A DNA stretch of 56,086 nt from IMG/VR virus record IMGVR_UViG_3300030330_003336, positions 1 to 56,086 of that record; one strand, given 5' to 3'. How positions within the stretch are numbered: position 1 is the stretch's first letter; each line of letters begins with the position of its first letter. Origin of the DNA: a virus (Duplodnaviria; Caudoviricetes). Of the stretch, positions 4,858 through 27,977 are shown one piece after another. A model generated the notes under the pieces. It saw only the letters and a list, made by a program, of their open reading frames with translations, was not told the origin of the DNA and made no database searches. The translations under genes were made by a program, and so were the position numbers.

Positions 4858-5448
4858 TTATTTTATTACGGCAATATCTAAACTGCCAGATGATGTAGTT
4901 TTAGTAACGTAAATATAAAAAGGATTTTGATCCGATTTAGTTATAGAACTTAATAACCCACCAACAACAGCACTTAATGTTGTTGAGGCTTTTGCTGCTA
5001 GCTCTTTTCTATTTACTAAAATAATAGTCTTGTCTGAATTTTTTATCTGATCATTTCTCTCAGCAATTGTTTTAGAAGATCTACTGTAACTATTTACGTT
5101 CAACATAGACAAACGCACACTAAAAATAACTGCGTCTGTTGTATGTGTATTACAAAATATAATATCTGAAAGTCTAGGTGATAATGATCCGTTAAAATGT
5201 ATCTGATATGGTACAGTATTTACTGTAGGTATATTTTTAAATACATCTACGCCACCTGTTTCTCTACTATTAAAAACATCTCTTTGTAATGCTTGTTGGC
5301 TTAAAGGTGATCGAGTAACAGTAGAAGGTGTAGCTGGAGCTGGAGCTGACACTGTTGATGCTCCCAGGTCTGGTTTTGTCGTAACTCTTTCAGGAGCTAC
5401 TGATTTTTCATATTTATCTTTATATGCGGTTAACCTTTCTTTACTCAT
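4858..5448 (-). CDS. Hypothetical, probable structural beta-sandwich protein
   Basis: Pro/Ser/Thr-rich linker followed by a beta-rich domain (IIFCNTHTTDAVIFSV). Confidence 0.55.
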   Translation of the reverse strand: MSKERLTAYKDKYEKSVAPERVTTKPDLGASTVSAPAPATPSTVTRSPLSQQALQRDVFNSRETGGVDVFKNIPTVNTVPYQIHFNGSLSPRLSDIIFCNTHTTDAVIFSVRLSMLNVNSYSRSSKTIAERNDQIKNSDKTIILVNRKELAAKASTTLSAVVGGLLSSITKSDQNPFYIYVTKTTSSGSLDIAVIK

Positions 5449-5911
5449 CGTAATCTTGGTAAGTAATTGTTACTTCTTCTCCATTTGCTATCGCTGACGC
5501 AATACGAGGATAAATCCTTTTATACGCGTTAACACTTTTACCAATGAATCCATCAGGTAATAGTTGGTTGTTTTCTTGTGAGTCACCCACAAGCAAGCAC
5601 CCAGCAGTATGTTCGTCAGTGTTTCCAGTGTGAATAAGTATATACTCAAAATTAGGAACATCGGTAACATGCAACATACCGCGATGTAAACCAGGATATT
5701 TTTTAGTATAGCGTTCATGAAATCCTCCTTCTTTTCTTAGTTCTATTTTGTACGTACCAGCAGGTACACGAGTTTCACCTCTTACTTTAAGTGCTCGTCT
5801 TTCGTCTTCAAGAGTATAACATAAAAACTTTTTACCTACCCCTGTATGTTCAAAAAGCAGACCATGTGTAGAGTCTGCTTCTGAACTAAATCTCAAAACT
5901 ATGAGTTTCAT
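5441..5911 (-). CDS. DUF5675 family protein, putative L,D-transpeptidase-like endolysin
   Basis: CYTLED...RVPAGTYKI...ILIHTGNT...TAGCLLVG, with the His/Cys dyad pattern. Confidence 0.75.
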   Translation of the reverse strand: MKLIVLRFSSEADSTHGLLFEHTGVGKKFLCYTLEDERRALKVRGETRVPAGTYKIELRKEGGFHERYTKKYPGLHRGMLHVTDVPNFEYILIHTGNTDEHTAGCLLVGDSQENNQLLPDGFIGKSVNAYKRIYPRIASAIANGEEVTITYQDYDE

Positions 5912-7031: not shown

Positions 7032-7279
7032 TATTTATTTAATATATCGTGTAACATTTGACATTTTTCATATTGCTCTTCAGTAATATAATACTCTATC
7101 ATTTTTTCCAAAACATCTTTAAATTTTGTTTTATCTTCTAAAGCATTGGGTGCAACTGCACAGTATACTACATCATCATCTGACGATAGTAAATTATCAA
7201 AAGTCATCTTGCCAGTCACAATGTAAAATGCATTGTTCATAGCTTCTGCTAATAATTGTTGATCATGAATGTTGCTCAT
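7031..7279 (-). CDS. Hypothetical protein with UVR (UvrB/C)-like C-terminal motif
   Basis: MIEYYITEEQYEKCQMLHDIL. Confidence 0.55.
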   Translation of the reverse strand: MSNIHDQQLLAEAMNNAFYIVTGKMTFDNLLSSDDDVVYCAVAPNALEDKTKFKDVLEKMIEYYITEEQYEKCQMLHDILNK

Positions 7280-7577
7280 TTAATCTTGACATACGAGCTC
7301 CGCAGCAACACATATTTTTGTCTGCTAGCTTCCCTCTATAATTACCACCATGTTTATATCTACTCACCCTACCCTTTTCCCTTTTTTCTTTAGCTGCTCT
7401 CGCTTTATCACTTTTACTTAGCTGACTCCAAGTTTTAGGTGTGTCCTTACTAATTCTTTTAGTAGGACGAAAAGTATTTTCACCTTTGCTGTAATCTTTA
7501 TTACCACGAGGTGTGCGCCAGTCTTCTTTAAACCAACGCTTTAATCTTAATCCAGCTGCTGTTTTACGTACTGCCAT
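7263..7577 (-). CDS. Small basic protein (DUF5872-like)
   Basis: LKRWFKEDW...FRPTKRISKDTPKTWSQL; K/R-rich; YKHGG motif. Confidence 0.6.
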   Translation of the reverse strand: MAVRKTAAGLRLKRWFKEDWRTPRGNKDYSKGENTFRPTKRISKDTPKTWSQLSKSDKARAAKEKREKGRVSRYKHGGNYRGKLADKNMCCCGARMSRLNEQHS

Positions 7578-7762
7578 TAATCAAGTTGTCTTAACATAAT
7601 ACCACCTTTGTGGTATTTCATACCTTTAGCGGCTTTTTTACTTTTATTTCCCCAATTAGCAGCACCTACTTTACGACACTTAGCCATTGCACCACTTCTG
7701 TATGCAGATGTTTTAGGTCCGTATCTTGCTACTACTTTATGATAACATGCATCTTTTGCCAT
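7577..7762 (-). CDS. Small basic protein
   Basis: DACYHKV...SAYRSGAMAKCRKVG; ends YHKGGIMLRQLD. Confidence 0.7.
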   Translation of the reverse strand: MAKDACYHKVVARYGPKTSAYRSGAMAKCRKVGAANWGNKSKKAAKGMKYHKGGIMLRQLD

Positions 7763-7932
7763 TATTTTTTCTTTTTAACAGTTCTGTGACGTTTTTGTAC
7801 ATCAAAGCTTGCAGATAAACTACCACCTGGATGTGGTTTAAATTTACCTTTATGCTTCATCAACTTATAAGTATTGTTTCCTTTTTTCATCCAATGAAAT
7901 CCAGCAGGAGCTTTTACAGTTTTTTTTGCCAT
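7762..7932 (-). CDS. Small basic protein (56 aa), not in the ORF track
   Basis: MAKKTVKAPAGFHWMKKGNNTYKLMKHKGKFKPHPGGSLSASFDVQKRHRTVKKKK; fills the gap exactly, with TAATG coupling. Confidence 0.7.
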   Translation of the reverse strand: MAKKTVKAPAGFHWMKKGNNTYKLMKHKGKFKPHPGGSLSASFDVQKRHRTVKKKK

Positions 7933-7933
7933 A

Positions 7934-8251
7934 TTAATTTAATTGTCGTAATGGCACTCTACATCCTGATTGACAGTTCCATTTACGTAATGATTTATTA
8001 ATTCTTGAGTTTGGATCTCTTGCTGTCTTAGCAGAAGTTAATCTTTTTTTCATACCACTCATTCTTGCACAAAAAGATTTTCTACGTTTTGCAGCTTTCG
8101 AACCTTTCTTTAACTTAGACGGCTTAGTTGTTACAGCAGTCTTTAACTTACTGCCAGGATTAGCCCTTCTGTAAGAGGCTACACCTTTTCTGTTAAGACC
8201 GCCCGAAGGATTCTTACCAGCTTTTCTTTGCCATGCGGGAGATTTAGCCAT
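7934..8251 (-). CDS. Small basic protein (DUF6321-like)
   Basis: Likely start MAKSPAWQRK at 8251; RRKSFCARMSGMK...SRINKSLRKWNC; ends PLRQLN. Confidence 0.7.
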   Translation of the reverse strand: MAKSPAWQRKAGKNPSGGLNRKGVASYRRANPGSKLKTAVTTKPSKLKKGSKAAKRRKSFCARMSGMKKRLTSAKTARDPNSRINKSLRKWNCQSGCRVPLRQLN

Positions 8252-8666
8252 CTTTGTTGTCATTATTCTTTTTACTGCTCCCACCAAAAAAGAAATCTAT
8301 TATTGTATTTACTTTAGCACTCATTGCTCCAAAAATTGTAGATATAAAACTAATTTCAAACTCACCCATATTTATACCACCACCTACAAAATGCTGAAAC
8401 ATTACAAAGCTTATACCAAAATAAGCTACAGTAAACAATGTTGCTAATACTTTTTGTATAATAGCATCATCTTTGTACATATCTCTTGCAGACTTACGAT
8501 CTTCTACTTCTTTAGCAAAAGCTTCTTTTTCTGCGTCAAGCAATACTTTGCGTAACTGTAGTTTTGCTTCGTCTCTTTCCTTATCAGTTGTAATAACTTT
8601 ATCTAAGATGCCTTCAGCATTATCTACTACTTTACCTAGTATACCTCCTAAAAGATTATTAATCAT
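8244..8666 (-). CDS. Holin-like protein (3TM/GTA-holin type)
   Basis: Amphipathic N-terminus, LDKVITTDKER coiled coil, two hydrophobic helices, FFFGGS and a basic tail. Confidence 0.65.
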   Translation of the reverse strand: MINNLLGGILGKVVDNAEGILDKVITTDKERDEAKLQLRKVLLDAEKEAFAKEVEDRKSARDMYKDDAIIQKVLATLFTVAYFGISFVMFQHFVGGGINMGEFEISFISTIFGAMSAKVNTIIDFFFGGSSKKNNDNKDG

Positions 8667-10656
8667 TGATTACTATTTTTATTGTAAGATGTATATTATT
8701 GTATCTTATTATTGCATTATAGATACCTGCATCAACTTGTAAAGATACGAAATTTACAGCTTTATGTTCAGATATTTTTTTACCAAGCATATTATATATT
8801 TCTATATCCACGTTATTTGTAAAATATATATTGCCCTTACTTGGATTTGGATATACTGACAATACAGTATTTCTAATATTTTGCACATCTGTTGGCCCAG
8901 ACCAACCATCAATACAATATTGATATAAGTAGTCACATGTATTATCCCATTCCACATTACAACAAAACTCATCTATATCAATTACCCATTCAAAACATTC
9001 ATTAGGAATATAATATATATCACCAACGTTACACCCAGCAGAAAAATAACACGTACTGTCTTCCACGTTAGCTGCCGAATTGTAATTAACAGCGGTCGGA
9101 TCAGTGCAACCATACAAAGGATAAATACAGCTACCATTATCAGTATTTGCAGCCATGTCATAATTAAGTGCTGTAGTGTCTGTACATCCATATAAATAAG
9201 GTATGCAACTGCCGTTATCTGTATTGCAGGTGTCGCAGTAATTAAACATTGTTGGATCTGTACAACCAAATATAACAGGCACACAAGATCCATCGTCACT
9301 ATTCGCTAGTGAATTATAGTTGAAGGCCGTACCATCAGTACAGCCCCAGACAACGGGTATGCATGAGCCATCGTCTGTATTTGCTAATGAATCGTAATTA
9401 AATGCTGTTATATCTGTACAACCATAAACAAATGGTATACAAGATCCATCATCAACATTTGCATTTACATTATAATTGTATGATGTACTATCCATACATC
9501 CTTCAACAACAGCAATACAAGAGTTAGGTATTTCAACATTTGCTATTGGATTATAATTTAAAGCAGTAGAATCCATACAACCATATACAATTATTGTAGC
9601 ACAGCTACCATCATCGTAATCATAAGATGCATTATACTCTAAATAAAGTGGGTTAGTACAACCTGGATTATAATAACAACTACCATCATCTGTATTTACT
9701 GTATCATTGTAATTTACTGCTAAAGTATCTATACACCCATATGTTCTTTCAATACAGGTATTACCACAATACGGCTGACCTATAATAGGAAAGAATGGTG
9801 GTATAGGATTTACAAAACCTCCTTCTATATCTATAGCTACATAGTCTTCAGAGTATAAGCTATATCCACATTGAACTGCAGTAAAATCTGATTGTTGTGT
9901 AATTTCAAATACTGCTCTAACAGGATAACCTGCTAATAAATTTATAAAAATTGTTGTATCAAAACCATCTGTCAACGTATATGTTCCAACATCTTGATAA
10001 TTAAATGGTGGTATCATGTTAGTTGCTTGCGAAAGTTTGAGTGTAGAACCAGCCCAGCCATTTCCTGCTAGGTCAGTTAATTCAAGCTCATGCAGACAGC
10101 TATCTATAGCTATATCTGTATTTGCTGAATCTATATAATTATATGCTAATGAATCTGTGCATCCATATATTTTTGGTGTAAAACACATGCCTGTATCTAG
10201 TGTAGCTGTTAAATCAAATTCTACATAACTACTATCCATACATCCAAATATTGGTGGAGGTGGTGGACAACCTGATGTATATATAGTATCATACATTTGA
10301 TTTCCAAAGTCAGCCATAGGTAACTCCCAAATAGTATCACCACATTGTTCTATGTATACAGATCCATCATTACCACCCCATAAACTACCAGCAATACCAT
10401 CACCATAAGTGTCATTTATAACAAAATAAAAACTATCAATAGGTGCACAAGCTGAAGCGTATTGTGGTTCATAATCTATAATATTTGTATATGGCCCACC
10501 TTGCATTAGTGTATCACCAAAGAAAGTCATTATATACCAAGAAGTTTCTTCTGGATATTGATCAGGATTTATTGTAACATTTAAACTCCACGTACCTAGA
10601 GGACATTGTGCAAAAGCAATATTAAATAAAAATAAAAATGTAATTAATTTTTTCAT
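8659..10656 (-). CDS. Secreted Cys-repeat protein with T9SS type A C-terminal sorting domain
   Basis: Signal peptide ending AFA-Q; 11 GC[TM]D..A.NY...AN.DDGSC-type repeats; C-terminus SVYPNPSKG...IYNMLGKKI...AGIYNAII...KIVIND. Confidence 0.85.
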   Translation of the reverse strand: MKKLITFLFLFNIAFAQCPLGTWSLNVTINPDQYPEETSWYIMTFFGDTLMQGGPYTNIIDYEPQYASACAPIDSFYFVINDTYGDGIAGSLWGGNDGSVYIEQCGDTIWELPMADFGNQMYDTIYTSGCPPPPPIFGCMDSSYVEFDLTATLDTGMCFTPKIYGCTDSLAYNYIDSANTDIAIDSCLHELELTDLAGNGWAGSTLKLSQATNMIPPFNYQDVGTYTLTDGFDTTIFINLLAGYPVRAVFEITQQSDFTAVQCGYSLYSEDYVAIDIEGGFVNPIPPFFPIIGQPYCGNTCIERTYGCIDTLAVNYNDTVNTDDGSCYYNPGCTNPLYLEYNASYDYDDGSCATIIVYGCMDSTALNYNPIANVEIPNSCIAVVEGCMDSTSYNYNVNANVDDGSCIPFVYGCTDITAFNYDSLANTDDGSCIPVVWGCTDGTAFNYNSLANSDDGSCVPVIFGCTDPTMFNYCDTCNTDNGSCIPYLYGCTDTTALNYDMAANTDNGSCIYPLYGCTDPTAVNYNSAANVEDSTCYFSAGCNVGDIYYIPNECFEWVIDIDEFCCNVEWDNTCDYLYQYCIDGWSGPTDVQNIRNTVLSVYPNPSKGNIYFTNNVDIEIYNMLGKKISEHKAVNFVSLQVDAGIYNAIIRYNNIHLTIKIVIND
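9049..9744 (-). repeat. Nine tandem ~26-aa Cys-bracketed repeats (GCTD type)
   Basis: For example VYGCTDITAFNYDSLANTDDGSC and VWGCTDGTAFNYNSLANSDDGSC; two more copies lie nearer the N-terminus. Confidence 0.9.
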
Positions 10657-10988
10657 TAAAATTTACTTATTATAAGTTCATCGATATAACCCTGTATTTC
10701 TTTTCTTGTTGCCTGCATTGTAAAACTTAAATCAGCTTGAAATCTTTTTACCTCTTCGCCATCATCAAATATAACTATCGTTGGTACAATAGCTATTTGA
10801 TACTTACTTTGATTGTCATTATTTTCAATAAAAAGAGACTGCTTATCGCAATCTCCTAACTTATCAAACCATTCAACATTATTTTGTTTGTTCCAATCTG
10901 CGTTAAAGTGTATCGCTGTTATCTGAGCTGAGCACGTAGTACAAACCACAAAGAACAAAAAAACCAAATATAATATCAACTGCTTCAT
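10656..10988 (-). CDS. Exported thioredoxin-fold protein lacking CxxC
   Basis: Signal peptide ending CSA-Q; HFNADWN replaces the WCxxC position; YQIAIVPTIVIFDDGEEVKRF matches the Trx cis-Pro strand. Confidence 0.7.
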   Translation of the reverse strand: MKQLILYLVFLFFVVCTTCSAQITAIHFNADWNKQNNVEWFDKLGDCDKQSLFIENNDNQSKYQIAIVPTIVIFDDGEEVKRFQADLSFTMQATRKEIQGYIDELIISKF

Positions 10989-10992
10989 TCAT

Positions 10993-11265
10993 TTATTGCA
11001 TTCTGTCAATCTTATCTTCTATACGAATCATTCTTTCTTCAAGTTTTTTAACGTCATCACGAGTTTCCATAATAGTGTTTCGTATGTTTTCGTCTTTCAT
11101 ATTAAACTCCATTCTTGATACATCAGGTTTAGGCAAATCTTTTGCCTCACTAATATCAGCCTGCAATGTAAACCACATTCCAACAAGGGTAAAAATAAGC
11201 GCTGCTATTCCAGCTAACGTTTTTATACTTATTTTAAAACTCGTGTCTTCGTTAAGCTCTTTCAT
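10993..11265 (-). CDS. Single-TM membrane protein with coiled-coil C-terminus
   Basis: TM segment LAGIAALIFTLVGMWFTL; VKKLEERMIRIEDKIDRM. Confidence 0.7.
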   Translation of the reverse strand: MKELNEDTSFKISIKTLAGIAALIFTLVGMWFTLQADISEAKDLPKPDVSRMEFNMKDENIRNTIMETRDDVKKLEERMIRIEDKIDRMQ

Positions 11266-11351
11266 TATTTTTTACATTTTTTTTTACAATGTCCAAAACA
11301 AACTTTACCAAAAGTTACTTTATGTATTAATTCACAAATAAATTTTTTCAT
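11265..11351 (-). CDS. 28-aa Cys/Lys-rich peptide, not in the ORF track
   Basis: MKKFICELIHKVTFGKVCFGHCKKKCKK; fills the gap exactly, TAATG-coupled to the next gene. Confidence 0.55.
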   Translation of the reverse strand: MKKFICELIHKVTFGKVCFGHCKKKCKK

Positions 11352-11352
11352 C

Positions 11353-12378
11353 TTAAAATATTATATAATTAATTCCTAATTTAAAATCGTACCACTCTCT
11401 ATTCCAATACTTGTGATATTTTCCTTCTACAAAAGTACCTAAATGTTTGTTAATTTTCAAACCAAAAATTAAACCACCTGAATAATCATACCATTGCTCA
11501 CCATCATTAAAGTTGTGATATGAGTATTCACCTCCGTTATTATAGTGATATGGTATTAAATTACCCCAGGTATGTAACCAGACATTTTTATTATACGTAT
11601 AATAATCAAAACCCAAAACAATGGAATGCACCCATTGATTTTCTAACTGATCTCTTTTCTTTTGCACATAATCAGATAGGACTTGTGGTATTACGACTTC
11701 TTCCCATACATCTGAGCTTGTTGCAACTATACTTCCTTGTGGATCAATATATTGATTATCATATACATCTATACTATACCCTTCTTGAATTGCTAAATAT
11801 GTATAATGTAAATTACCATTTGACAACAACCACTCTTCAAGCGGATTGTATCCATAGGGCTCTGCTAATCTTGTAACACCACCTATATTAAATGATAGTT
11901 TTTTATTTCCTCTTATTCTAAATCTTTGTGTAGCTTCATAGTATTCTACGTCAGCAAAGCCATCTTTCATGTACTCTATTTTTGTCATCCACAATGGTTT
12001 AACATAACGTAAGAAATGATTTTGATCTATATATTCTATACCCTCTTGTCTTCTATAGTCTACTTCAAATAAAAATTCAAAAGGAGCTAATCCAATTGTA
12101 GCTGCATCACTATATGTAGTTTCAGTTCCATCTTTAAATGGACTATTACCTTCATATTGAAACCTTTTTATTTTTCTTATACCAGCAGTTAATGAATAAT
12201 CGTATGGTGTTTCCTCTATTCCTGTAGTAAGTTGATCTTGTATATTGTATATAGTACGATCAGACAATGAAGTACCACCATTAGCTGCTATATAAAATGT
12301 AGAAAATTTAAATAATGTTTTTATTTGTGCTTGTGACACAAATGACATAAACATTAATATAACCAATATTCTAATCAT
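11353..12378 (-). CDS. Putative outer-membrane beta-barrel protein
   Basis: Signal peptide ending SQA-Q; Tyr/Trp/Phe-rich alternating strands; C-terminal YDFKLGINYIIF resembles a BAM beta-signal. Confidence 0.7.
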   Translation of the reverse strand: MIRILVILMFMSFVSQAQIKTLFKFSTFYIAANGGTSLSDRTIYNIQDQLTTGIEETPYDYSLTAGIRKIKRFQYEGNSPFKDGTETTYSDAATIGLAPFEFLFEVDYRRQEGIEYIDQNHFLRYVKPLWMTKIEYMKDGFADVEYYEATQRFRIRGNKKLSFNIGGVTRLAEPYGYNPLEEWLLSNGNLHYTYLAIQEGYSIDVYDNQYIDPQGSIVATSSDVWEEVVIPQVLSDYVQKKRDQLENQWVHSIVLGFDYYTYNKNVWLHTWGNLIPYHYNNGGEYSYHNFNDGEQWYDYSGGLIFGLKINKHLGTFVEGKYHKYWNREWYDFKLGINYIIF

Positions 12379-13600
12379 GTCTTAAAGCTGGATATGTATT
12401 ATCATAATATTCTTGCAACAAAGCCACTTCTGCTGTAGATAATGCTCTATCGTATAGTGAAACTACAGCAACTTCTCCTTGAAAATCACTAGCATTAGTA
12501 GAAAATGCCCCCATAAAATCTACTTCTAAACGAGCATTAGCATCCACTGTACCATCATTTGGATAACCATCAATGAGTGCTCCACTACTACTAGTTAATT
12601 TTTCTCCAACTAAATTAGCAGCATCATAAACATAAAGTTTTTGTTTATTATCTGTAGAGTTTACTTCAGACACTACCACAATTAACTCATGTTTACCAAC
12701 TATAAGTGAAGATTCTGTAGCGCCGCCTTTGTCTGTTACTGGGCCTTTTGATCCAACTATATATGTACCTGTATCATTTAGCCTTACTTGTGCAAAAGCA
12801 TTTGATGATCCAGAAGAATTAAATCTAACTAGCACAGTATTTGCATTAATTTTAATTTGATTTATTCCACCAGATGATCCAGACACTATTGCATCTCCAC
12901 TTATTACGCCTAGCGGTTTTATTATCATAAGAAAAGTAAAATTTTGATCTGTAGTAACAACAGCAGAACTCATATCTAAACGATCATTATCCCCATCAAA
13001 TTTTATAACTCTTCTATGTAGAAGCCCTAAAGATGTAGAAGCAGTCCCTGCAGGTCTTGCTTGTGGATCTGTTGGTATAATGAGATGTCCACCAGCCGAA
13101 CCTTCGTTTTTGACTTGCAGCTCATCCGTAGACCAATTACTAAAATCTCTTAAACCTGTTCCTTCCCCAGCTGTTCCTAAAACAGGATTAACTATAAGCT
13201 GGTATTCGCCAGCAACAAGAACTATATCATCAAATGCATTATGAGCAGCTTGTGTTCCAGCTACATTTCTTGTAACATTAAGCAACTTACTTATATCAGT
13301 GCCTGAACTATCATATCCTGAAAAAGAAAAATATTCACTATTTATCAAAACTACACCTGCATCGGGGAAGCTATTAGTTGAAAAAAAATCACCTGACTTT
13401 AGTCTTATTTCATTAGCCGTAACAGCACCAGTGCTAGCTATAGGATCATTTATTCTTGCTCCTGTTGTTTTTGCAGGAAACTTAGCGTGATCAACTTTTG
13501 AAAAATCAAAATGTATAAGGGGTGCGCCTAAGTCATGCAAAGGATCAAATGACTTACGATGAGAAGGATTCTCAAGTCCCATATGTAAGCCCATATGCAT
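12371..13600 (-). CDS. Tail fibre / receptor-binding protein with LamG (ConA-like) domain
   Basis: Likely start MHMGLHMGL at 13600; IKFDGDNDRL...NFTFLMIIKP...FQGEVAVVSLYDRALSTAEV; N-terminal FPDAGVVLINSE...VTRNVAGT domain. Confidence 0.7.
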   Translation of the reverse strand: MHMGLHMGLENPSHRKSFDPLHDLGAPLIHFDFSKVDHAKFPAKTTGARINDPIASTGAVTANEIRLKSGDFFSTNSFPDAGVVLINSEYFSFSGYDSSGTDISKLLNVTRNVAGTQAAHNAFDDIVLVAGEYQLIVNPVLGTAGEGTGLRDFSNWSTDELQVKNEGSAGGHLIIPTDPQARPAGTASTSLGLLHRRVIKFDGDNDRLDMSSAVVTTDQNFTFLMIIKPLGVISGDAIVSGSSGGINQIKINANTVLVRFNSSGSSNAFAQVRLNDTGTYIVGSKGPVTDKGGATESSLIVGKHELIVVVSEVNSTDNKQKLYVYDAANLVGEKLTSSSGALIDGYPNDGTVDANARLEVDFMGAFSTNASDFQGEVAVVSLYDRALSTAEVALLQEYYDNTYPALRHD

Positions 13601-13604
13601 AAGT

Positions 13605-13985
13605 CTATGATGCTTGGGTGTTAAGTCCTGGATGTGCACCTGAAGCAGGAGCTACATAAGCAATACATTTACCCGTATTTAACGTAACTGCTGTAAATCT
13701 ACCGTAAATAGTTACACCTGTTGGAAAGGTATCTGTTGTTGCTATAGTTTTTCCAAATGCTCCAGCAGCAGCTGTGTTAAGATAAGCTGAAAATTTTCCG
13801 TCTTCTGCATAGGGAGTAAGTGTTGTAAAAGTACATTCTGATAGCATTGTTATTGCTACAACATGATGCGGTACATCACCTGCTGTATCTAAATTTTGTA
13901 CTGACTCATCACTTGATGTTGCATCAAGATATGCGCTACCAAAGTAACCTGTCGCTATTGAGAATAAATCGTTATTGTTTGCCAT
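13605..13985 (-). CDS. Tail fibre-associated small protein, paralog of 14421-14807
   Basis: FPTGVTIYGRFTAVTLNTGKCIAY. Confidence 0.65.
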   Translation of the reverse strand: MANNNDLFSIATGYFGSAYLDATSSDESVQNLDTAGDVPHHVVAITMLSECTFTTLTPYAEDGKFSAYLNTAAAGAFGKTIATTDTFPTGVTIYGRFTAVTLNTGKCIAYVAPASGAHPGLNTQAS

Positions 13986-14836: not shown

Positions 14837-17800
14837 TTATTGTCTAAATAAAGGCTCGGTTACTGCACTAAATGGTGTTAGCTTACGAGCTGTCTTTGGT
14901 GCTTTCAATGATCCACGATCACCATACTCACTTTTACGCTCAAACCTTTCTAGTGTAGCAAGCTCTTTACTAAACTGTAATGTATTTCTGTATGTGCTAA
15001 GAGATGCTGGCGGTATAGTATAGTTTACAAATCTGTTTACATCTGTAAATATCATAGCATCTGATGTAAGTTTTTGTATTCTTGGATTATAAAAATCATC
15101 ATCATCTGCAGCCATACCCATAAGTAATAACATAGCAGTCATACCCATACCTCTTAACAATGCATTAATAGCGTCTTTTCTATGCTCAGGTAATGCCTGG
15201 AACTCTGCTCGCATATCAGCTAACTTAGACTCGCCATTCATCATACGCATAACAAAATCATATCCTGCTCTATAAGAACCAATCTCTAACTCACCAAACC
15301 TATTGATGTCTTCTTCTTTAAGTCTGTTGTAAGCTAATGTGATAAACCAACGTTTGTACTGCTGTGCTGCAACACCTAAAGAATATACACTTAATAATCT
15401 TTGATCTATTTGTGTATAACCTTCACCATGTAGAGTAGATATTTTATTATTTATTTCCATAGCTCTACGTTCTTGTTGCTGTTCATTACCAGCTAACTGA
15501 CCATTCTTAAATTCTTCTTCAGTCATTTCACCTAAAAATGCAGCACCTTGTATATAATTTTCTGATAGTTCCATAGGTAAAAATGCCCATTGTTCTATTT
15601 TACTAAATGAATCTCTATCACCAACTACATCGCTAAACGTTAATTCTATAACACGATATTTTTTAAGTATATCAATACCTTTCCATCCATCTTTTGCAAG
15701 TGATGTCCAATATCTTTTTTCACCAAGTATAAACTTTTTACCACCTTTAGATCTAAGCTCTTGATATTTACCTGCAAGTATATTACCTACACCAACACCA
15801 ATATTTAAACCAAGATGAATAAGAGCTGTCCATCTAGTCATAAACTGTATAACTTTATCTGCTCGTTCTCCAAATACTGTAGTCTGTCTTTGGTTTCTTA
15901 AGAAATTTTCTCTCCATACACGTTGAACATACTCTGCTGTATTTTCATTACCCATATCCCTATTTACTGCAATCACACCATCAATCAACATTGCCATATC
16001 ATTAAAACCTCTAAAGTTGCCGTCAACAGATCCATGTACAAATGTCATTGATCTAACATACTGTTTAAGATTATTAGCTAAATTAAAACTTGTAAGCTCT
16101 TTTGCTCTAGTTGTTCTTCTAGCATTAAACCTTGAGAATAATCCACCTTCCATCAATGTATCCATTTCTAAATCGCTTGCCATAATTGGATCGCCACTTT
16201 CATGATATCCACTTTCTAAAGCTTTTTCAGCTTTCTTTTTTAGTTTGTTCAGTTCTCTTATCTTTCTACCTTTTACTATCAAACTACCATCTTCAAGTGA
16301 ATATAAATTTTTCCAATACCCAAATGAATGTAAAGCCTTTTGTCCATCTTTATCTACACCATATACTTGCACCCCATCTATATTAGATGTACTTCCTAAG
16401 AAGTTAGCATACAGTCCCATAAGTCCACGCGCAGATAAAGCTTCTAAATTACCCATTTGATAATGTGGTATATACAACTCTAAACCTTTACGCTTAATTA
16501 ATCTTTGATACCTTTTTGTTATATCTGTATACTTATTGTAAAAGTTTATTTCTTCACGACTAGGATTAGTAGCCATAAACTCTTGTTTAGATTTAAGACT
16601 TATACCGTCAACTGTTTCATTTATCATATTAAAATACAGTTCATTAAATCTAGCTCGTTTATTAAATATAGTTTTTAGTGTAAGTTTTTTACTATTTCTT
16701 AAAGCTGTCTCTACAACATTAATTTCTTGTACTATCGACTTTATTTCTTTTGCATACTTTCTGTACTCTTCTTGTATTTGGTTTAGCATAAACTGCACTT
16801 CTGGTCGTTTAGATGTCATGTTATTTGATCCGAACCATTTTCTAATAGTGCCTATATCTTCATTACCTTGATACTTATATTTACCTTTGCTCTTTCTTTG
16901 CAGCTCTTTTATTTGTTTTGCCATAGCTTTTTTACCTATAGCTAAATGTAGTTTATGCAATAATCTAGCATTAGCAACTTCATCATGTTTTTTCTGCACA
17001 TCTTGTGCAAGCTGATACAATGCATCTAAGCTCAAAGTTTCTATGCCTTGCACTTCTAACTCTTGTTCTTGTTGAGCTAAACTTCTGTACGACTCAAGAT
17101 ACTTATCATATCTATCATTAAAATATTTTTTAATATTAGCATCAGTTTCTTTTTGTATCATTGAATAATCATAACCCAAAAAGTTAAAGAACTCTTGTTT
17201 ATTCAAAAGCTTGTTTGTTTCAGATAGGTGATCCATGTAAAATAATCTAGCTTTTTTAAACTTGGTAGTTCCATCTGGTTCTCTTTGTGTTTTACCTTGT
17301 AACTCCTTTTTCTTTTGTTCAGTAACACGTGATCTTGTTTGATTTTTAAATATATCTAAGTGATTAGATATTAACTCGTTAGACATTTCTTCGACAGCTT
17401 TAGATTCAGTTGAAGATTCTTTGTCTTGTTCTGATTCAAAAAAGTTGTCTAATAAATCAAATTTATTTTTTAAATATTGTTTATCAAACAATGGCGTCAA
17501 TGAATTACGCTCAAAACCTAATTTGTTTTTTAAGAAATCATATTGCAATAATGCATCTTTAATATTGTCAGGCAACAGTAAAAACTCATTACGAGCTATC
17601 TGTATCTCTTCTTCGTTGCTAAACGCGTTTATTTGTTTTTTGTTTATTTCTATTTGATTTTTGTAAAAATCTGATTTTGGATCGTTACTTAATAATAAAT
17701 ACTTTTTGACAAAGTTATCTGCTGTTAAATCTGCTCTATTAGCATAATCTTCTATTGTAGCATACACTTCAGTTAGTGATTTATTATTATTAAGAACTGG

Positions 17801-20800
17801 TAACGCTTCAGATATTTTCATCAAGTAATAATCTTCAATAAGCTTTCTGTGTTCTCTTCTTTCAAAATCTAAAGTAATCTTTCTTTCATTCTCTATATAC
17901 GCAATTACATCACGCGCTTCTTTTGTGTACATGAACGATGTAGACTTTTGTCTGTCTACTTGTTTTTGTAATAACTCTATAGCATGTTTGATCAAAGGAT
18001 CAGATCTAAAGTTACCCATTGTATTTGGCTCAAGTAAACTAGATTCTCTTGCATCTCCATTAATTGTATCTATTAATCTTTTTGCATCGTGTCCATGTTT
18101 AGGCATCGACTTATGCACAGATAGAGATTTGCCTATTGTAAATATCTCATCTGATACTTTTTCTAGTTTGTGCATAAAGCCAATAACACGATACTGCATG
18201 TCTTTGCTATTGCTTTTAAGTCTTGTAATATCTAAATCTATTTCAGCACTACTATACTTTTTAAGTATTGCTTTAGCTTTTGCATCATTTACTCCACCTA
18301 TTTGTTTAATAGCTTCAATAGCAGCAATACCTTTAGTAACTGTCATAACTGATTGATCACCTCTTTTCTCAGCATATACTTTTACAGCTGGGTGATTCAT
18401 AATAACAGATATATCTTTTATGTCTACGCCTAGTCTTGCTAACAATGTAAACTGATTTACAGTATTTGGATTTAAACCCATGTTATTAGCGTACTGATGT
18501 TTTGCATTATCTAATACAATATTGAGCAATAAGGCTACTGCAAATGCGTTACCAGCTGCATTGTTTTCTGTTGTCTCATCTACTAGCCCATTAAGATTTT
18601 CATATGTTTTACTTAAACCTTTTATATTAAGTGTAAAGTTAAACCCTACACCGTAACCTGCCATAACGTTCAACACACGCTGTAAAGATGCAACAGTTCC
18701 AATCATATTTTGTGCTGGCACATTATCATTAAAGTACTGCTTATCACCTATAGGGAGTAGCTGTGATTCTCTTTCTTCTTTCTTGCCATAAAATTGTTCA
18801 ACAGATCTTAAAGATTCTTCTGCTACCTCTTTTATTTCTATTGGTGTAGTTAGTTCTCTGTACCTTTGACTATCTACCTCAATATCTGCAATAAGATTTA
18901 TGTTCAACTCTAATAATCTATTTGCATCAGCTTGCCAAGGCTTTAATACATTTGTTACAGGAACAGCTTTACGTCTTCTAGTTCCTGGTATAATTACTGT
19001 TTCATCTATATTACCTTTGTGCTCATAGTTCAAAAATAATGAGTCACCATCCATATCAGATCCTATAACTTCTGAAACTTTTGATGGTACAGATATAATA
19101 GATCGTGCACCTTCTGTGCCTTCTGCATGAAATCCTTTTACAACTAAAGCTACTGTAGATTGTTTACCGTGTGCAGGTACACGTGTAGCTAATATTACAT
19201 CACCAACTTTAACTCCATCTTGCTTAGCTGTTGCAGGTATGATAGCTTCAGATACTACTAGGTCTCTACCTTCTTCGATATATCTGTTAAGTATATTCTT
19301 ATATCTTCCCTCTGATGCTTTCTCTGCTAACTCAGACATCTTTTGATATGCATTTAGATTCATGCCTATACTTGATACCTGATAAGCTATAGTACCCCTA
19401 AACATAGCTTTTGTTCCAAACTTTACAAGTCTTGATGCAGCTAGTTGTTGCATTAAGTTGTGCATTTGTGGAAGTAATGCAGGTGCATACTGCGCTAATG
19501 ATGTATTAAGATTTCCAAAAAACTCTTCACCAATCAATTGTCTTAAGAAATCTACATCTCTTTGTCTTTCTTCTGCAGTTGATTTGTCTTTGTATATAAC
19601 AGTGCCTCGTTTAGTTTCTTCATAGCCCTGCATTGCTTTAGCTGCCAATTCATGCATCTCTCTTACGATTGCTGTTTCTTCAGCAGTAAGATTAGAATGA
19701 TGGTGCCCAAACAATTGTGATGGCATATGGAAAGCATGTCTTTCTTTATCAAGCTCTACTTGTACACCAAATCCTTCGCCAGATATACCACTCCAGTTAC
19801 CTTCTTCTACTGCATTGTATATATTGTCCTGTTGTTCGCTTATCTCGTCTACAGACATATTATCTATATCGTAAATATACTTATCACCTGGTGCATATAA
19901 CTTAAGAGCGCTTTTGAATGTAGCAATAGGCGCAAAGTCGTGATCTTGTTGACTATTACCAAACTTTTGTTCAGCTATTACCTGTTTACGTTTTCTCAAA
20001 ACATCTGCTATCTTTTTGATCGTAGGATTATTTTTTTCCATTTCAGGAGTTATCTCAACTATCTTAAACTTTGCAAATGTTCTTTTACCTTGTAGGTTTT
20101 TATTTATATTGTCTACCTCTACATAGTCATACACGTGTTTAAACACATGACCTACTTTACGCATAGCACCAAACTTGTTTCTTATCTTTTGACCATCGCC
20201 AGGTAATACATATGCTTCTGCATCTGTTGCCTTGTGTGTTCCTGTTGTTCCTTGGTACTGTCCATTTTCATCTTCAAATAAATCTTGCAGACCTACAAAC
20301 TCTATAGGAACATTACGATCATGCGGTGTGTGTCTTTTAATTGCACCTTCAGCACGTTTGATATAATCTATTTCACTTTGTGACTCTTCGTGTCTACCAA
20401 TAAGCAATTGTTGAGCCATAGCCTTATTTACAGTATAATTAAGTAAAAACTCTTGCAGCTTTTTATTAGTAAGCTTTTCGCCTTTTTTACCTATTAAAGT
20501 ATTAAGCTCTATTTGTTTTGGATCTTTAAGTATCTCAGCTTTTAATTTTGCTGCTGCTTTCTGTAAACCAACAATCTTATATGTATTACCTTCTTTCTTT
20601 ATATCAAAAGGAAATACTTTCTTTCCATCTTTATATGTTAACTTATGTAAACCTGCCTCATAAGCCATTCTTGCTAATTCATTCTTTTCTTTGGCTGTTC
20701 TTGCAAGTCTTGACTTAACATAGTATCTACGTTTAGCTGCACCAAATACAGCTATGGCTTGATCGTAGTATGCGGCTTCTTTATTGTTTTTGTTTTGATC

Positions 20801-23800
20801 AAGATTATATAAGTAGTCATTTAGGTCAGCTAACATAAGTTCCTGACTATCCATTTTAACATACTTACGATTTCTTCTTCTATCTATTCCAAAGCTTTCA
20901 TCTTTAGCTACAACTACACCAGACAGCATACTTATACCTAACTCTTTACCTTGGTACATAATTTTTACAAATGGATTTACAAACTTACCATCCTTTATGT
21001 ATCCAAGACCTGCAGCACTCATAAGTCTGACGAATGCAGATTTGTTTTCTCTAGCTAACCTTGCATAATTTTCATTTTTATTATGCAGACTGTTTTCTTT
21101 GTTAATAATCATAGTTGGATTTTCAGCTACATCATTAACCATAGTTATATAGTTCTTTGATCTTGACTGAATCATTAACTCTGATAGTAGTGTTCTAAAT
21201 CCATTTTGTATTTGTAACACATCGCCTCTACCTTTATTATCTACAAAGTCTTTTATGTTTGATTGTACAAGGTCTGCTATAGTAGTATATCGTTTACCCT
21301 TATAGTTAAAGCTTCTAGATGTTTCTGAAAACAATTCTCCATTGATATATTGATAGTATGAGCTATCTGTATATATTGCGTTAAAAGCTTCTGCAATGTT
21401 TCCAGCTCTTAATAAATCTATAACGCCAAACTTTTCTTGATTTGTTTTTTCTCCTGTTGCAAACCATAGTCTGTTAGCGTGTTGATCTAATCTAGCCAAC
21501 CAACGCTTTTCATCCATGCTTAACGACTCTTCACTAAACCATGTGTTTACACCATCAGGACCTTTTCTAAATGATACTTGTTTCATTGTTTCGACTTTCT
21601 TATTTGCAAAGTCGATTGACATATCTAACAATAGTGCATCTACTAAAGATTCTCTACCAAACTGATCTTGTAAGTATTTAACAAACCTTTGTACATCTAT
21701 ATTGTCGCTATTAATTACTTGATCTACAAACGCAAATGGATTGTTACGCTTTACTCTCTGTCCTATAGCAAATAGTTCTGCGAGTAACTCTGACTTGTTA
21801 ACTGGATTCTTAGGCGTTCTTTTACTTTCTATAATAGAGTAGCCCTCTATAACTGTAGAAGTTGTACCAGATAAAGGTTTTTCATCTCTATCATACAATT
21901 GTCCTGAATCATTATCTTCCTGTATTGTTTCTTCGTTTTCTTGATACTCGCCTATCAAATCGCCAGGCTGTAGATCTTTACCCTCTGGCGACAACTTTTC
22001 ATTTAACGCTGCGGTTAACTTATCCAATACTTTTCTATATGCAGCATAATCAACTTTATCTACTAATGATTGTATTTTTCTTCTAATAAAGTCGTGTTGT
22101 ATTTCACCTACACCAAATGGTGGCTTTTGTTTTGTAACACTATACTTTAAGCCATTCATTTTGTATATTTCCTTCAAAGCCTCTTGCACAGCTGCCTCGC
22201 CTTTCAATCCTTTTGCTGCTACTTTTTGTGTTACAATTTGTGTCATACCACGCATAGATACAGCCTCTAATCCAAATATCTTTTGTTGTGGTTTTTCACT
22301 ATATGAGTTTTTCTTGAACTGATTATTAGCATTAAGAGTGTTAAAGTTCTTGCTAATATAATCCATCATCTCATCAAGATTCATATCAGCAATCTCAGGT
22401 ATTGCAGTTTTAATAGACTCTTCAGCTTCTTTTCTATTTCTACCTAACCTACTAACAGTATTGTATATTCTGGTAAATACACTTTCTGTTTCTTGTGCTA
22501 ACTTAGCATCTTTAACAACATTTAGTATCCCACCATTTCTGTTGTAATCTTCATTTGCAAATGCAAAAGCTTCTTCTAATAAACCATATTGAACTTGATC
22601 GCTCATACGTTTTACTTTTCCAGTTTGTGCTAATGCAGTTAAAAGTTCTCTTACAGATTCATTATATTGTTTTTCATTGCCTTCTTCTCTTGATGTTCTA
22701 ATAGTTTCTACTAAACTAGTTAGTGAAGTTTCTAAATCCATTCTACCATTCAAAGCTTCATAAACAATACTACCACCTGTTACAAATTTATTGCCTTTTC
22801 GGTAACGTACGAGTTCTGGATAATTGATTTCTATTTGTGGTAGATAACCTTGTTTAATAAGAAGTTTATTTAGTCGTTTTTGTATTGCTGTACCAGCTAT
22901 TGCTTGATAGTATGGATGTGATAACTCATGTATCAAGTCAGTCTGCATTGCTGCGTCTTTATTTACAAGAATTGTACTACCAAAGAATACAGCTTTAGCT
23001 GGTGCTCCAAACCCTTCTAATAATTTTTTATATGTGAATCGTACATCAACTCCAGGAAACTGTGAGCTTAATGCATCACGTAAATATTTTTGAACTGCTT
23101 CTTCCACTGGATCAACAGTAATTTGATGTATATCATTACTGTCGTTGTTGTCTGTTTTCTTATACTTTGTATCTGGATCGATTTGATCATCAAGACCTTT
23201 TATTACATCGTCTTGTTGTTCTTCTTCGTTTGCGCTTTCTACAAATTCTTCAATTTGTTTATCTACGGTTTTTTTACTTTTTTTTTTAGGTTTCTTAACC
23301 TCTTCCGTTGTTGCTTTCTGCGCTTCTTCTTTACGAGCAGTTTCTATATTTTCTTCAGATTCTGCTGCACCAAATATATCTTGGTTTTCTTCAATAAACT
23401 GTTCATCAGATTCTGTAAGCTCTTGTTCATTTTTTATTTTTTCAATAATTCCTCGAGCTCTTCTTTGTTTTACTTTATCAGTTAAGTTGTTAACTCTTTC
23501 TGTAAAAACTCCAATAAGTTTAGAACCACTTTCTTTTATTGTAGTAAATATATTTTTAAATACAGTACCAATAGATTCTTTCTGCTCTCCTGTAAGTCTA
23601 TTAGTTACCATTGTTGTTATTTGGTCTATAAACTTTTTAGAAGCTCCTTTAAGGTCGGTCTTTTTAATTTTATTTACAATTTCTTGTGCTTTCTTTTTAG
23701 CCTCTTCTTTTGTAAACCCTTTTTCTTTAGCTTTTTCCTTAGCTTCTTTTATTTTGTCTTCAAGAGCTTTTGCTGTTTTAGGGTGATTTTTTTTTAAATA

Positions 23801-26071: not shown

Positions 26072-27975
26072 TAGTAATTAAAGTATTTAGTCCAAAGTCT
26101 AGATCGTGATTTTAATTCATCAACATCTTTCTTTGGTGATGTTTTTTCTTTATATCTGTAATATAAATCTAAATTACCAGATTTAAGTATATCATATAAC
26201 TCTGGATCACTTTCTTGTAACACACTAAGATTACTTATTGCACCCATCATTAATTCATGTGTATCAGCAGTATCGCTCATTTGCGCTTGTTTACCTGCAC
26301 CATCTAATAATTCAGTCATAACTATTGGTAACATTTTGTAATCAATACCTGCATTCAACATACTCATTGTAACTGGAGCTGCATAAGTATCAGCTATCAT
26401 ATCAATACCAGCAAAATTATTGTTTGAATATACGGATGCTAATTGATTTTGAGCTTTATTCTTAAGAGCTATTTGTTTTTCTTTTTTCTTTTTGTCTTTA
26501 GCAAAGTTAGCAATATTTGTTCTAGTTTCAGACAATGATTTATTAATATTTTCATCTGCATCTAGTCCTGCTATATTTACATAATTCATATCTAACTCTT
26601 TATAATATACATCATCTTGGAACATATCATCTTCTTCCATTTGTATAATATAAGCTGGTTGGAATTGTATATCATCTAATGCAGCTAATTTTTCGTTTAT
26701 ACTCTTAGCCCTATTAGTAGGATCTAAATCAGCTTCCCCTTCTGTCATAAGTATTTCTTGTTTTCTACCAAACTTATCTATACCTACAGCTTTTTGACCT
26801 ACAAATATTCCTTTGATCTCCATGTCATCTAAATTCTTTTCTAGAGATAATGGACCAAGCTCATCTTCATATATCATACTGCCTCTGAAGTTATACAAAC
26901 CAACACCATCACCAAAGTCTTCAACAATAAACTTACCATCTTCAAATTGTATTCTATCACCAAATACTTGACGCAATACTTTTTCTTGCATGTCTGGATT
27001 TGTAAATATTTCACCACTTGTCTGTGCAACAACACTGTTTTTAACAATAGGTCTAGATCCTGCGTCATAGCCGACTAACATATCATAATATTGTCCAGCA
27101 CCAGATGCTTCAAATAATTGTGCGTATGAATTGTTTCTTAATTGAGCTCCTGTAGCTCGTGGTGCCATTTCTAGTCCTTTAACTAATTCTGTGCCAAGAG
27201 TTGTTTTAATTGCTTTCTCTCCAAAGTCAGCTTGTTGTATACCAGAAATACCCATACGTTTTTTAAGATATGGTATAAGTGATTCTGGATTGTTTTGTGC
27301 ATAAGTAATAAGCTCATTTGCATTTGGCTGATCAGCTACCATGTAAGAATAGTCTGCTAATAGTGTTGGTAGGTTTTCATACAAGTATGCTTCAATACCA
27401 ACATTTTCTTCAACAGTCATATTTTCTAAAAACTTAGTGTCTATCTCTCCATCAAGCTGACCTCTATAAGTAATTACATCTGTTTCACCTGCTTGAAATC
27501 TTGCTAAATTATCTCTATCTCTTAATGATAGTAAATGTCCTTTTCCGTCATTTTGTACTTGTATAATTTTTGCTAGATTTTCTTTGTTTTGTGCTACCTG
27601 ATAAACAAAATCATTATTGTTTAGTTTGTATTGATACTCAGCTATTAATCTATCTATACCAAATTGTTTTGCTCTTTCGTAGGAACCATATTGACGCAAC
27701 ATATCATTAATAGGTTGTAAATAATCATTAGATATATTTTTAATACGTTCTCTATCCTTGTCTCTTGCGTGTTGTCCAGTAAGTAATTGATTTGCAGTTT
27801 CATACGACTTATCTATCATTTGCTGCATTGCTAAACGATTCTGAGTCTCTACCTGCTGTTCTTGCTGTTGCATCTGTAAGATGCCTTGCATGTATTGCAT
27901 TTCTTGTCTACGTCTTTCCTTTTTATTAGACGAGCCAAAAAAACCACTTAATGCGTTATATCCAAATGCGTCCAT
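26071..27975 (-). CDS. Putative ejection/internal virion protein
   Basis: MDAFGYNALSGFFG followed by a Q-rich coiled coil; located between the tail and RNAP genes. Confidence 0.6.
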   Translation of the reverse strand: MDAFGYNALSGFFGSSNKKERRRQEMQYMQGILQMQQQEQQVETQNRLAMQQMIDKSYETANQLLTGQHARDKDRERIKNISNDYLQPINDMLRQYGSYERAKQFGIDRLIAEYQYKLNNNDFVYQVAQNKENLAKIIQVQNDGKGHLLSLRDRDNLARFQAGETDVITYRGQLDGEIDTKFLENMTVEENVGIEAYLYENLPTLLADYSYMVADQPNANELITYAQNNPESLIPYLKKRMGISGIQQADFGEKAIKTTLGTELVKGLEMAPRATGAQLRNNSYAQLFEASGAGQYYDMLVGYDAGSRPIVKNSVVAQTSGEIFTNPDMQEKVLRQVFGDRIQFEDGKFIVEDFGDGVGLYNFRGSMIYEDELGPLSLEKNLDDMEIKGIFVGQKAVGIDKFGRKQEILMTEGEADLDPTNRAKSINEKLAALDDIQFQPAYIIQMEEDDMFQDDVYYKELDMNYVNIAGLDADENINKSLSETRTNIANFAKDKKKKEKQIALKNKAQNQLASVYSNNNFAGIDMIADTYAAPVTMSMLNAGIDYKMLPIVMTELLDGAGKQAQMSDTADTHELMMGAISNLSVLQESDPELYDILKSGNLDLYYRYKEKTSPKKDVDELKSRSRLWTKYFNY

Positions 27976-27977
27976 AA

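Follow-up and report, generated by a model that had tools for sequence, protein, structure and literature searches.

A conserved set of predicted envelope proteins encoded beside a holin-like gene in ocean tailed phages

What use might a tailed phage have for a set of proteins that appear to be addressed to successive layers of its host's envelope? This question is raised by the IMG/VR virus record IMGVR_UViG_3300030330_003336, from an uncultured marine phage of putative Bacteroidota hosts, all 56,086 bp of which form the window analyzed here. Five consecutive genes on its minus strand encode a 341-residue exported protein modeled as an outer-membrane beta-barrel (barrel341, 11353..12378), a 28-residue peptide with four cysteines and a net charge of +8 (cys28, 11265..11351), a 90-residue membrane protein (TM90, 10993..11265), a 110-residue exported protein with a predicted thioredoxin fold without a CxxC motif (Trx110, 10656..10988), and a 665-residue protein predicted to be a cargo of the Sec pathway and of the type IX secretion system, or T9SS (T9SS665, 8659..10656). 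A sequence-only reading had described this cassette as five tightly packed genes between a tail fiber and a holin. All five open reading frames (ORFs) are indeed present on one strand with gaps of −8 to +4 nt, but the flanking names are less secure, as the supposed tail fiber is a weak LamG match (24.6 bits, with a cut-off of 27.6) and the supposed holin is a weak match as well. We show below that three of the five genes, those for barrel341, TM90 and Trx110 (hereafter the trio), travel together in many ocean phage contigs belonging to more than one lineage.

Predicted export and envelope placement

Three of the five products begin with what appear to be Sec-type signals cleaved before glutamine in the style of Bacteroidota, as had been claimed from the sequence. 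The N-termini read ...FVSQA before QIK in barrel341, ...TTCSA before QIT in Trx110 and ...NIAFA before QCP in T9SS665, where the N-terminus as a whole, MKKLITFLFLFNIAFA followed by QCP, is of the Sec signal type. Signals were scored on distinct homologues with a heuristic of our own, which requires a hydrophobic N-terminal stretch and then a small-x-small motif directly before Gln. By this measure, 145 of 169 barrel homologues, 133 of 162 Trx110 homologues and 60 of 79 cargo homologues retain the pattern. None of 155 TM90 homologues does, and their anchor would remain uncleaved. Hydrophobic segments that begin within the first five residues occur in four of the 57 genes of the window (greedy set), and three of the four are in the cassette. 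Signal peptides that follow the Q rule have already been published for Porphyromonas phages (PMC10367356). Among the barrel homologues, lipobox-like signals were matched by regular expression in 28 of 169, for example in L016, L019, L020, L022 and L031 (..LTSCA.PK.CCSQ), and because of these signals the barrel family may in part be lipidated.

Cysteine content sets the cargo apart from the large proteins of the structural region. T9SS665 has 37 cysteines, whereas there are none in the products of 3744, 858, 634, 608 and 399 residues that are encoded by a giant ORF (14837-26071, minus strand) and by the next four large ORFs (634, 858, 399 and 608 residues; 26071-33579, minus strand). One of these large Cys-free products is a weak match to tail tape-measure proteins. 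The difference between a Cys-rich cargo and Cys-free virion proteins therefore fits export of the former to an oxidizing compartment. Overall, sequence and model evidence support a predicted placement in which TM90 is an inner-membrane protein of type II-like topology, Trx110 is an exported thioredoxin fold, barrel341 resides in the outer membrane, and T9SS665 is a cargo of Sec and of T9SS type A. The products would thus reach the inner membrane, periplasm, outer membrane and surface, as proposed by the sequence-only reading.

An AlphaFold2 model of barrel341 built with 23 homologues (predicted local distance difference test score, or pLDDT, 71.8; predicted template modeling score, or pTM, 0.65) consists of long antiparallel strands with an alpha/beta insertion at residues ∼175-245. 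When compared with the PDB by Foldseek, the model has 127 matches at E ≤0.001, and those listed to E 1e-4 are outer-membrane barrels alone. NanC is the best of them (E 6.5e-7), followed by PorB, FadL, FapF, Tsx, OmpG and NalP, with TM-scores that are moderate (TMq 0.2-0.39). The protein ends in LGINYIIF, which had been noted as resembling the signal recognized by the beta-barrel assembly machinery (BAM), and 142 of 169 homologues likewise have Phe as their last residue. Model and C-terminus thus make barrel341 a predicted outer-membrane beta-barrel with an ending of the BAM type, in keeping with both earlier proposals. It matches no Pfam and no NCBIfam family at E up to 1 and no PDB sequence at E up to 10, and none of 33 members of its family matches any Pfam family or outer-membrane protein family (PorP/SprF, PorV/FadL, OMP_b-brl, Phage_OMP). 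The columns of alignment A1 are on average 66% identical. A lipase-type Ser-His-Asp site formed by the near-invariant residues S252, H269 and D298 was considered for the barrel and dropped, because the hairpin register puts S252 and H269 far apart.

The assignment of Trx110, also anticipated from the sequence, comes from its family profile. Although the single sequence stays under the Pfam and NCBIfam cut-offs, a profile built from 18 homologues has 89 matches in the PDB at E ≤1, and the best 60 of the 89 are nearly all thioredoxins, with 2vim_A in first place (E 2.7e-6). In the alignment, the WCGPC segment of this thioredoxin structure forms an insertion relative to the Trx110 family, which has FNAxWN at this position, and for this reason we consider the CxxC site to be missing. 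The mature part of the protein has no conserved cysteine, and the cis-Pro element V68-P69-T70 is invariant. We therefore predict that Trx110 is a periplasmic protein whose thioredoxin fold no longer has a redox site.

TM90 has a single N-terminal transmembrane segment (residues 12-30), followed by ∼55 charged residues in a heptad-like pattern that is visible in the sequence and in alignment A4. From these features we infer an N-in, C-out topology with a tail that is probably helical or coiled-coil. Its only matches in PHROGs are to families of unknown function (1009, 12220, 1863 and 736), and neither the window protein nor 24 members of its family match a spanin-annotated family there. The intervening cys28 peptide was also considered as a micro-lipoprotein. 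This idea was rejected, as just two hydrophobic residues precede Cys6.

The T9SS type A C-terminal domain (CTD) claimed for the largest product is borne out by two approaches. The hidden Markov model (HMM) TIGR04183 scores 30.4 bits on residues 601-664 of T9SS665 (cut-off 23) and 33.7-45.9 bits on the homologues from L024, L012 and L021; PF18962 scores 25.4 bits, slightly below its cut-off of 27. AlphaFold2 yields confident domains at residues 21-130, 185-295 and 605-663 within a model that has a pLDDT of 49.9 as a whole, the repeats being of low confidence. The CTD (pLDDT ∼75) has as its best PDB match 8glk_D, a substrate CTD in the T9SS translocon (TMt 0.77, root-mean-square deviation 2.0), and also matches the CTDs of RgpB and mirolase. 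T9SS665 is thus a predicted T9SS type A cargo whose sorting domain is shown by HMM and by fold. The protein also includes two beta-sandwich domains and about ten Cys-framed repeats of ∼26 residues, with a tandem period of 78 nt in the DNA. A C2-like or galectin-like identity for the two N-terminal beta-sandwiches is suggested by weak Foldseek matches that we do not trust. In the ESM Atlas, the clusters nearest to residues 17-300 share no common Pfam family and are viral where taxa are recorded. Homologues of the cargo vary widely, from 411 to 1059 residues and from 31 to 79% identity.

A trio that recurs in ocean phage contigs

Co-occurrence was examined in two sets of loci. The first comprises 118 loci seeded with three barrel proteins, that of the window and the remote proteins P0010 and P0017. 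The second comprises 79 loci seeded with Trx110, at least 12 of which are from contigs already in the first set. A full barrel ORF is present at 115 of the 118 barrel-seeded loci and all three genes of the trio at 101, with TM90 and Trx110 adjacent in 100 of these 101. About ten of the 17 loci that do not have the full trio are cut within 1.6 kb of the barrel gene, and six have 3-6 kb on each side with no pair. When the whole contigs of five of these six were searched, all five were found to hold an adjacent TM90-Trx110 pair farther off. At the Trx-seeded loci, TM90 is present in 79 of 79 and the barrel in 73 of 79. Of the five barrel-less cases other than L193, three hold a barrel gene elsewhere on the contig, and two are fragments that are 58% and 73% complete.

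These counts, together with the whole-contig searches, therefore define the trio as a unit at the level of the genome, with the Cys peptide as an option. A gene for cys28 is present at 8 of 32 loci, at 10 of the 118 barrel-seeded loci and at 23 of the 79 Trx-seeded loci. Hence the notion of five co-occurring genes holds for four of them, across many phage contigs, and fails for the peptide that had been counted as a member of the set. Some loci show additional features. At L049 (7802-8215), L074 (7676-8035) and L079 (7808-8224), where there is no nearby TM90-Trx pair, an ORF of 119-138 residues that is thermonuclease-type by eye only lies between the gene for a Cys-rich protein and that for a small membrane protein with two segments.

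Which protein accompanies the barrel depends on the group of loci. T9SS665 cargo is frequent in the near group: homologues are found at 66 of the 79 Trx-seeded loci, and the cargo stop overlaps the barrel start in L131, L140 and L142. In the remote group, an exported Cys-rich protein that is unrelated to T9SS665 is encoded directly after the barrel at 62 of 79 loci. This ORF (L037-L116, for example 6707-7402 in L082) specifies a signal peptide, a Cys motif like that of low-density lipoprotein (LDL) receptor class A repeats, and a variable acidic beta-strand repeat. None of seven such proteins matches TIGR04183, though their short tail resembles the end of a T9SS CTD.

The barrel/TM90/Trx110 family is phage-only and very common in ocean viral DNA. 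A HMMER search of 1.84 billion representatives found 288 barrel clusters, and a profile search found 3766 clusters at 90% identity. Among the 120 matches listed of these 3766 clusters, none has a functional name or a Pfam domain, and the sources are metagenome archives, including Tara, with the longest contigs reaching ∼125 kb. Remote barrel members are on short or phage-sized contigs, one of them in a Tara record labeled <0.22 µm, and one is on a 206-kb contig. At least 525 Trx-type relatives are on viral contigs. The top three of the 30 nearest barrel clusters in the ESM Atlas are 100% viral, and the 30 are viral wherever taxa are given and have no common Pfam family. The sequence-only reading had allowed for the cassette on host chromosomes. 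It was not found there, as a collection of species-representative genomes yielded just four loci, all on contigs of 7-120 kb from metagenome-assembled genomes that were binned to unrelated phyla, and none in the genome of an isolate. Searches of GenBank phages returned zero matches, both by blastn with positions 8200-13700 and by tblastn with barrel341, the remote barrels P0010 and P0045, TM90 and Trx110.

Genomic neighborhood and relatives without the set

The five genes lie between two neighbors that overlap them. Upstream is the gene for a LamG-like protein of 422 residues (12371..13639, minus strand; Pfam Laminin_G_3, E 3.1e-5, the weak match noted above), which has no cysteine and whose gene overlaps that of the barrel by 8 nt. 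In L002-L004 and L009-L011, a homologue with 50-59% identity precedes the barrel gene, and elsewhere this gene is absent or very diverged. Downstream is a gene for a holin-like protein of 140 residues (8244..8666, minus strand), which overlaps the cargo gene by 8 nt. The six junctions of this stretch, those with the two neighbors included, measure −8, +1, −1, +4, −1 and −8 nt in the order from LamG-like to holin-like. Such junctions leave no space for internal promoters and suggest that the five genes and their flanks form a single translationally coupled array. The cassette is best explained as the tail end of a late, co-oriented gene array of the phage. A scan for sigma-70 promoters found 40 in the window versus 48.4 expected, a result without enrichment from a scan that does not model Bacteroidota promoters, and terminator-like matches are all within genes.

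Two further features of the window stand apart from the cassette. Just downstream of the holin-like gene, at 7263-8287 on the minus strand, is a run of small and very basic proteins rich in Lys and Arg (104, 61, 56 and 117 residues), which is kept in relatives and merged into bigger ORFs in some (840 residues in L074; 220 and 309 residues in L079). The short plus-strand block includes a gene (1073-1528) for a protein of 151 residues that carries the C-terminal helix-turn-helix domain of DnaA (47.9 bits).

The strongest contextual clue, missed by the sequence-only reading, comes from relatives, in which the set often abuts genes for endolysins and holins. In the window, the holin-like protein matches GTA_holin_3TM below its cut-off (E 0.018) and phrog_3427, annotated 'holin', at E 6e-4. 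Its homologues in L082, L100, L104 and L106 are encoded directly after M15 endolysin genes, whose 3′ ends they overlap, and this position in relatives supports the label. A gene 2.3 kb downstream of the holin-like gene encodes a DUF5675 protein of 156 residues with an H...TAGC motif (5441..5911, minus strand; Pfam PF18925, 95.1 bits, cut-off 26.7), which is likely the endolysin of this phage. A DUF5675 lysin candidate has been grouped with C82 peptidases by structure (10.64898/2026.04.11.717860).

Among relatives, candidate lysins are encoded at 77 of the 101 trio loci, as DUF5675 (38), M15 (31) or YkuD-like proteins (8), and at 34 of the 101 the lysin gene touches a trio gene (≤60 bp). The DUF5675 gene of the near group often overlaps or directly follows the end of the cargo gene (L122, L126, L146), and in many relatives a homologue is encoded either there or close to the holin gene. 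In the remote-group loci L082, L100, L104 and L106, the genes run, with overlaps, from the barrel through an exported Cys-rich protein, a small protein of the membrane, TM90, Trx110 and an M15 endolysin to the holin-like protein, and in L117 the order is TM90, Trx110, barrel, M15, a small ORF and the holin-like gene. A regular-expression scan of the window in six frames for lipobox ORFs found only one, antisense in a structural gene (41819-41959), and none in or near the cassette.

Nearly all genes of the window are on the minus strand, and PHROGs supplies names for a terminase (50555-52372), a portal (48231-50552) and a major head protein (45493-47049). The portal has 26-32% identity to portals of crAss-like phages and also matches Flavobacterium and Cellulophaga phages; 128 records were matched in all, each with less than 60% identity. 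A search with the portal yielded complete relatives of 64.7-68.4 kb, compared with 56,086 bp here, so the record may be incomplete and may miss several kb.

Within this clade the cassette is accessory. Of 14 portal relatives compared, seven have the barrel and six have Trx110. Four of the 14 are at least 90% complete; three of these have both genes, and the remaining one, G013, has neither. G013 is 67,431 bp long with terminal repeats (CheckV 100%) and is a close relative, with identities of 74% for the portal, 82-83% for the holin homologue and 74% for the DUF5675 protein. Because one complete close relative has no part of the set, the cassette is accessory and not core. The slot before the holin gene of G013 holds only an 86-residue acidic protein with 11 cysteines and a 247-residue protein. 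In G014, another relative, the slot has five small or mid-sized ORFs, including small unrelated membrane ORFs and a coiled-coil protein with an N-terminal anchor, for which no relation to TM90 is detectable. These contents indicate that the slot between the fiber-like genes and the holin gene is a swap site. Small acidic Cys-rich proteins are encoded directly upstream of the holin gene in cassette-less relatives, at 5732-5992 of L283 (minus strand, 86 residues, 11 Cys) and at 6987-7199 of L285 (minus strand, 70 residues, 8 Cys), and both end in ...C..CGS.

Possible roles and known counterparts

We tentatively favor a role for the trio in the outer-membrane step of lysis, spanin-like in function and not in family, with the T9SS protein as a separate and variable cargo, and we regard this as a possibility that falls short of being probable. 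The trio would act on the outer membrane at the end of infection. The holin would open the inner membrane, the endolysin would cut the wall, and an assembly anchored in both membranes would then open or weaken the outer membrane, doing the job of the spanins of other phages. The barrel may breach the membrane by pulling the two membranes together, by providing a pore or by acting on lipids. T9SS665 would be a fast-evolving surface or secreted protein, and cys28 an optional cationic extra. In favor of this role are the tight packing up to the holin-like gene, the steady co-occurrence of the trio, the candidate lysins encoded near it, the scan of the window that found no canonical spanin, and the conservation of a family confined to phages.

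A number of observations weigh against a lysis role. The lysin gene touches the trio at only about a third of trio loci, as counted above, and the candidate endolysin gene of the window lies at a distance of 2.3 kb. Exported Cys-rich proteins, including the unrelated one of the remote group, are more constant neighbors of the barrel than lysis genes are, and the barrel is sometimes several kb from the TM90-Trx110 pair. The extracytoplasmic part of TM90, at ∼55 residues, is short to span the periplasm; no member of the cassette matches a spanin family in PHROGs; and we know of no precedent for a beta-barrel as a disruptor of the outer membrane. Furthermore, G013 is complete without the barrel and Trx110, and the G014 slot has small unrelated ORFs, such that the set is dispensable or replaceable.

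Nearly as likely as lysis, and likewise not probable in itself, is a role in cargo display or surface remodeling. The barrel, perhaps with Trx110 as a redox-dead chaperone similar to the b′ domain of protein disulfide isomerase (PDI), would anchor, export or fold its Cys-rich neighbor, and the infected surface might then bear a phage adhesin or mask that serves superinfection exclusion, keeps progeny off debris or mediates particle attachment. In both groups of loci the barrel is beside a Cys-rich protein with a signal peptide, either a T9SS665 homologue (66 of 79) or the unrelated LDL-receptor-A-like protein right after the barrel (62 of 79 remote loci), and yet the trio stays conserved while the cargo family switches completely. 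The cargo is as variable as surface proteins are, has 37 cysteines versus none in the large virion proteins, and carries a T9SS tail confirmed by HMM and fold. However, a type A cargo should need no barrel of its own, searches of Pfam and NCBIfam link the barrel to no family, the T9SS barrels PorP/SprF and PorV included, and the small Cys-rich proteins of the remote group fall below TIGR04183 in seven of seven cases. The accessory, moron-like status of the cassette in its clade would suit display, but its late-operon position leaves little time for exclusion, and no PADLOC defense or exclusion family is matched by any of seven proteins at E up to 0.1.

It is also conceivable, though we think it unlikely, that two separate units share the slot, the barrel and its Cys-rich cargo working at the surface while TM90 and Trx110 regulate or assist lysis, for example as an antiholin-like timing device or as an i-spanin-like partner of a host component. 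The pair is adjacent in 100 of 101 loci and together in 79 of 79, it is directly upstream of the lysin gene at 28 of 65 remote loci, and the barrel with its Cys-rich neighbor can be several kb away, beyond 6-kb flanks. Nonetheless, all three genes co-occur on a contig whenever the record is near complete, relatives without one are without all, and the holin-like protein, as we read its sequence, has no sizeable periplasmic domain to which a regulator could bind. We consider it very improbable that the products are virion or assembly components whose hydrophobic N-termini are not export signals. The genes do come after the structural genes in the same orientation, with a LamG-like gene of the fiber type immediately before them, but cleavage-type signals before Gln are kept across homologues, the barrel model and its matches are outer-membrane proteins, the cargo is Cys-rich where virion proteins are Cys-free, and a T9SS sorting domain is present. 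The probability that these four explanations leave belongs to something else.

The closest functional parallel to the favored lysis role is offered by two-component spanins of the lambda Rz/Rz1 type (Kongari et al. 2018, PMC6139136). As in those systems, the products would reach the inner membrane, periplasm and outer membrane, and one component, here TM90, has an N-terminal membrane anchor and a tail that is probably helical; spanin genes, too, often abut endolysin and holin genes and are mosaic across lineages with varied lysin types. Unlike spanins, the cassette has no lipoprotein o-spanin, its outer-membrane part being a 341-residue beta-barrel, and it adds a third, soluble protein of the thioredoxin fold, whereas the tail of TM90 is just ∼55 residues long. 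No sequence in the cassette matches a spanin-annotated family.

For the cargo, there are published counterparts. A phage-encoded T9SS type A cargo has been described for 'Cryophage' (Bellas et al. 2020, PMC7468147), and ORFs with T9SS sorting domains are reported on crAss-like contigs (de Jonge et al. 2019, PMC6949934). These share with T9SS665 a Sec signal, a type A sorting domain and variability among related phages. They differ in being endoglucanase, GH39, PA14 or BACON-repeat proteins, and the available parts of both papers mention no companion barrel, TM or Trx protein, whereas T9SS665 is a Cys-repeat protein inside a conserved envelope set. The assertion that crAss-like phages have no described equivalent is thus too strong for the cargo (PMC6949934, PMC7468147), and for the trio it agrees with the literature searched. 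No description of the barrel/TM/Trx set was found in full-text literature, although supplementary gene tables might mention such ORFs.

Individual components of the trio also have precedents. Phage-encoded outer-membrane proteins include Lom and Bor of lambda, which are prophage morons, and the lipoprotein Llp of T5. These, like Phage_OMP proteins of the cyanophage type (PF24653), resemble barrel341 as phage proteins that the host inserts into its outer membrane. Lom, Bor and Llp stand alone, however, and are not part of a conserved trio, and the barrel family shows no sequence relation to known families (0 of 33 members in Pfam). Redox-inactive thioredoxin folds are found in the b and b′ domains of PDI and in TraF of the F plasmid. 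By analogy, Trx110 may be a CxxC-less fold in an oxidizing compartment, presumably for partner binding, but its homology is no more specific than a general match to thioredoxin profiles.

Another comparison is with the disruptin gp28 of phage phiKT, a peptide that disrupts the outer membrane. Like gp28, cys28 is small and strongly cationic (+8 over 28 residues) and is encoded beside lysis-linked genes; unlike gp28, it is half as long, has four cysteines and occurs at fewer than half of the loci. A survey counts phiKT as spanin-less and also includes Bacteroides and Croceibacter phages among those without an identifiable spanin (PMC6139136). Cultured marine flavophages are also mostly without annotated spanins (PMC8776804). 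We can imagine, with considerable doubt, that spanins and disruptin have a third counterpart, a machinery that breaches the outer membrane and is made up of the barrel, TM90 and the redox-dead thioredoxin, with a BAM-inserted barrel as its core. Such a machinery would supply many 'spanin-less' marine Bacteroidota phages with the final stage of lysis that is otherwise missing, and the same event would release or display the Cys-rich cargo.

The module is real, conserved, confined to phages and, by prediction, exported, and its position is that of late accessory genes and lysis genes. Phages are a leading source of mortality for marine Bacteroidota, a group that turns over much of the carbon of algal blooms. 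If the module is a lysis device, it would represent a new mechanism and would also give access to host range, because it would need the Sec, BAM and T9SS pathways of the host. A display device would mean that lytic phages re-dress the surface of their hosts through a secretion system found only in Bacteroidota.

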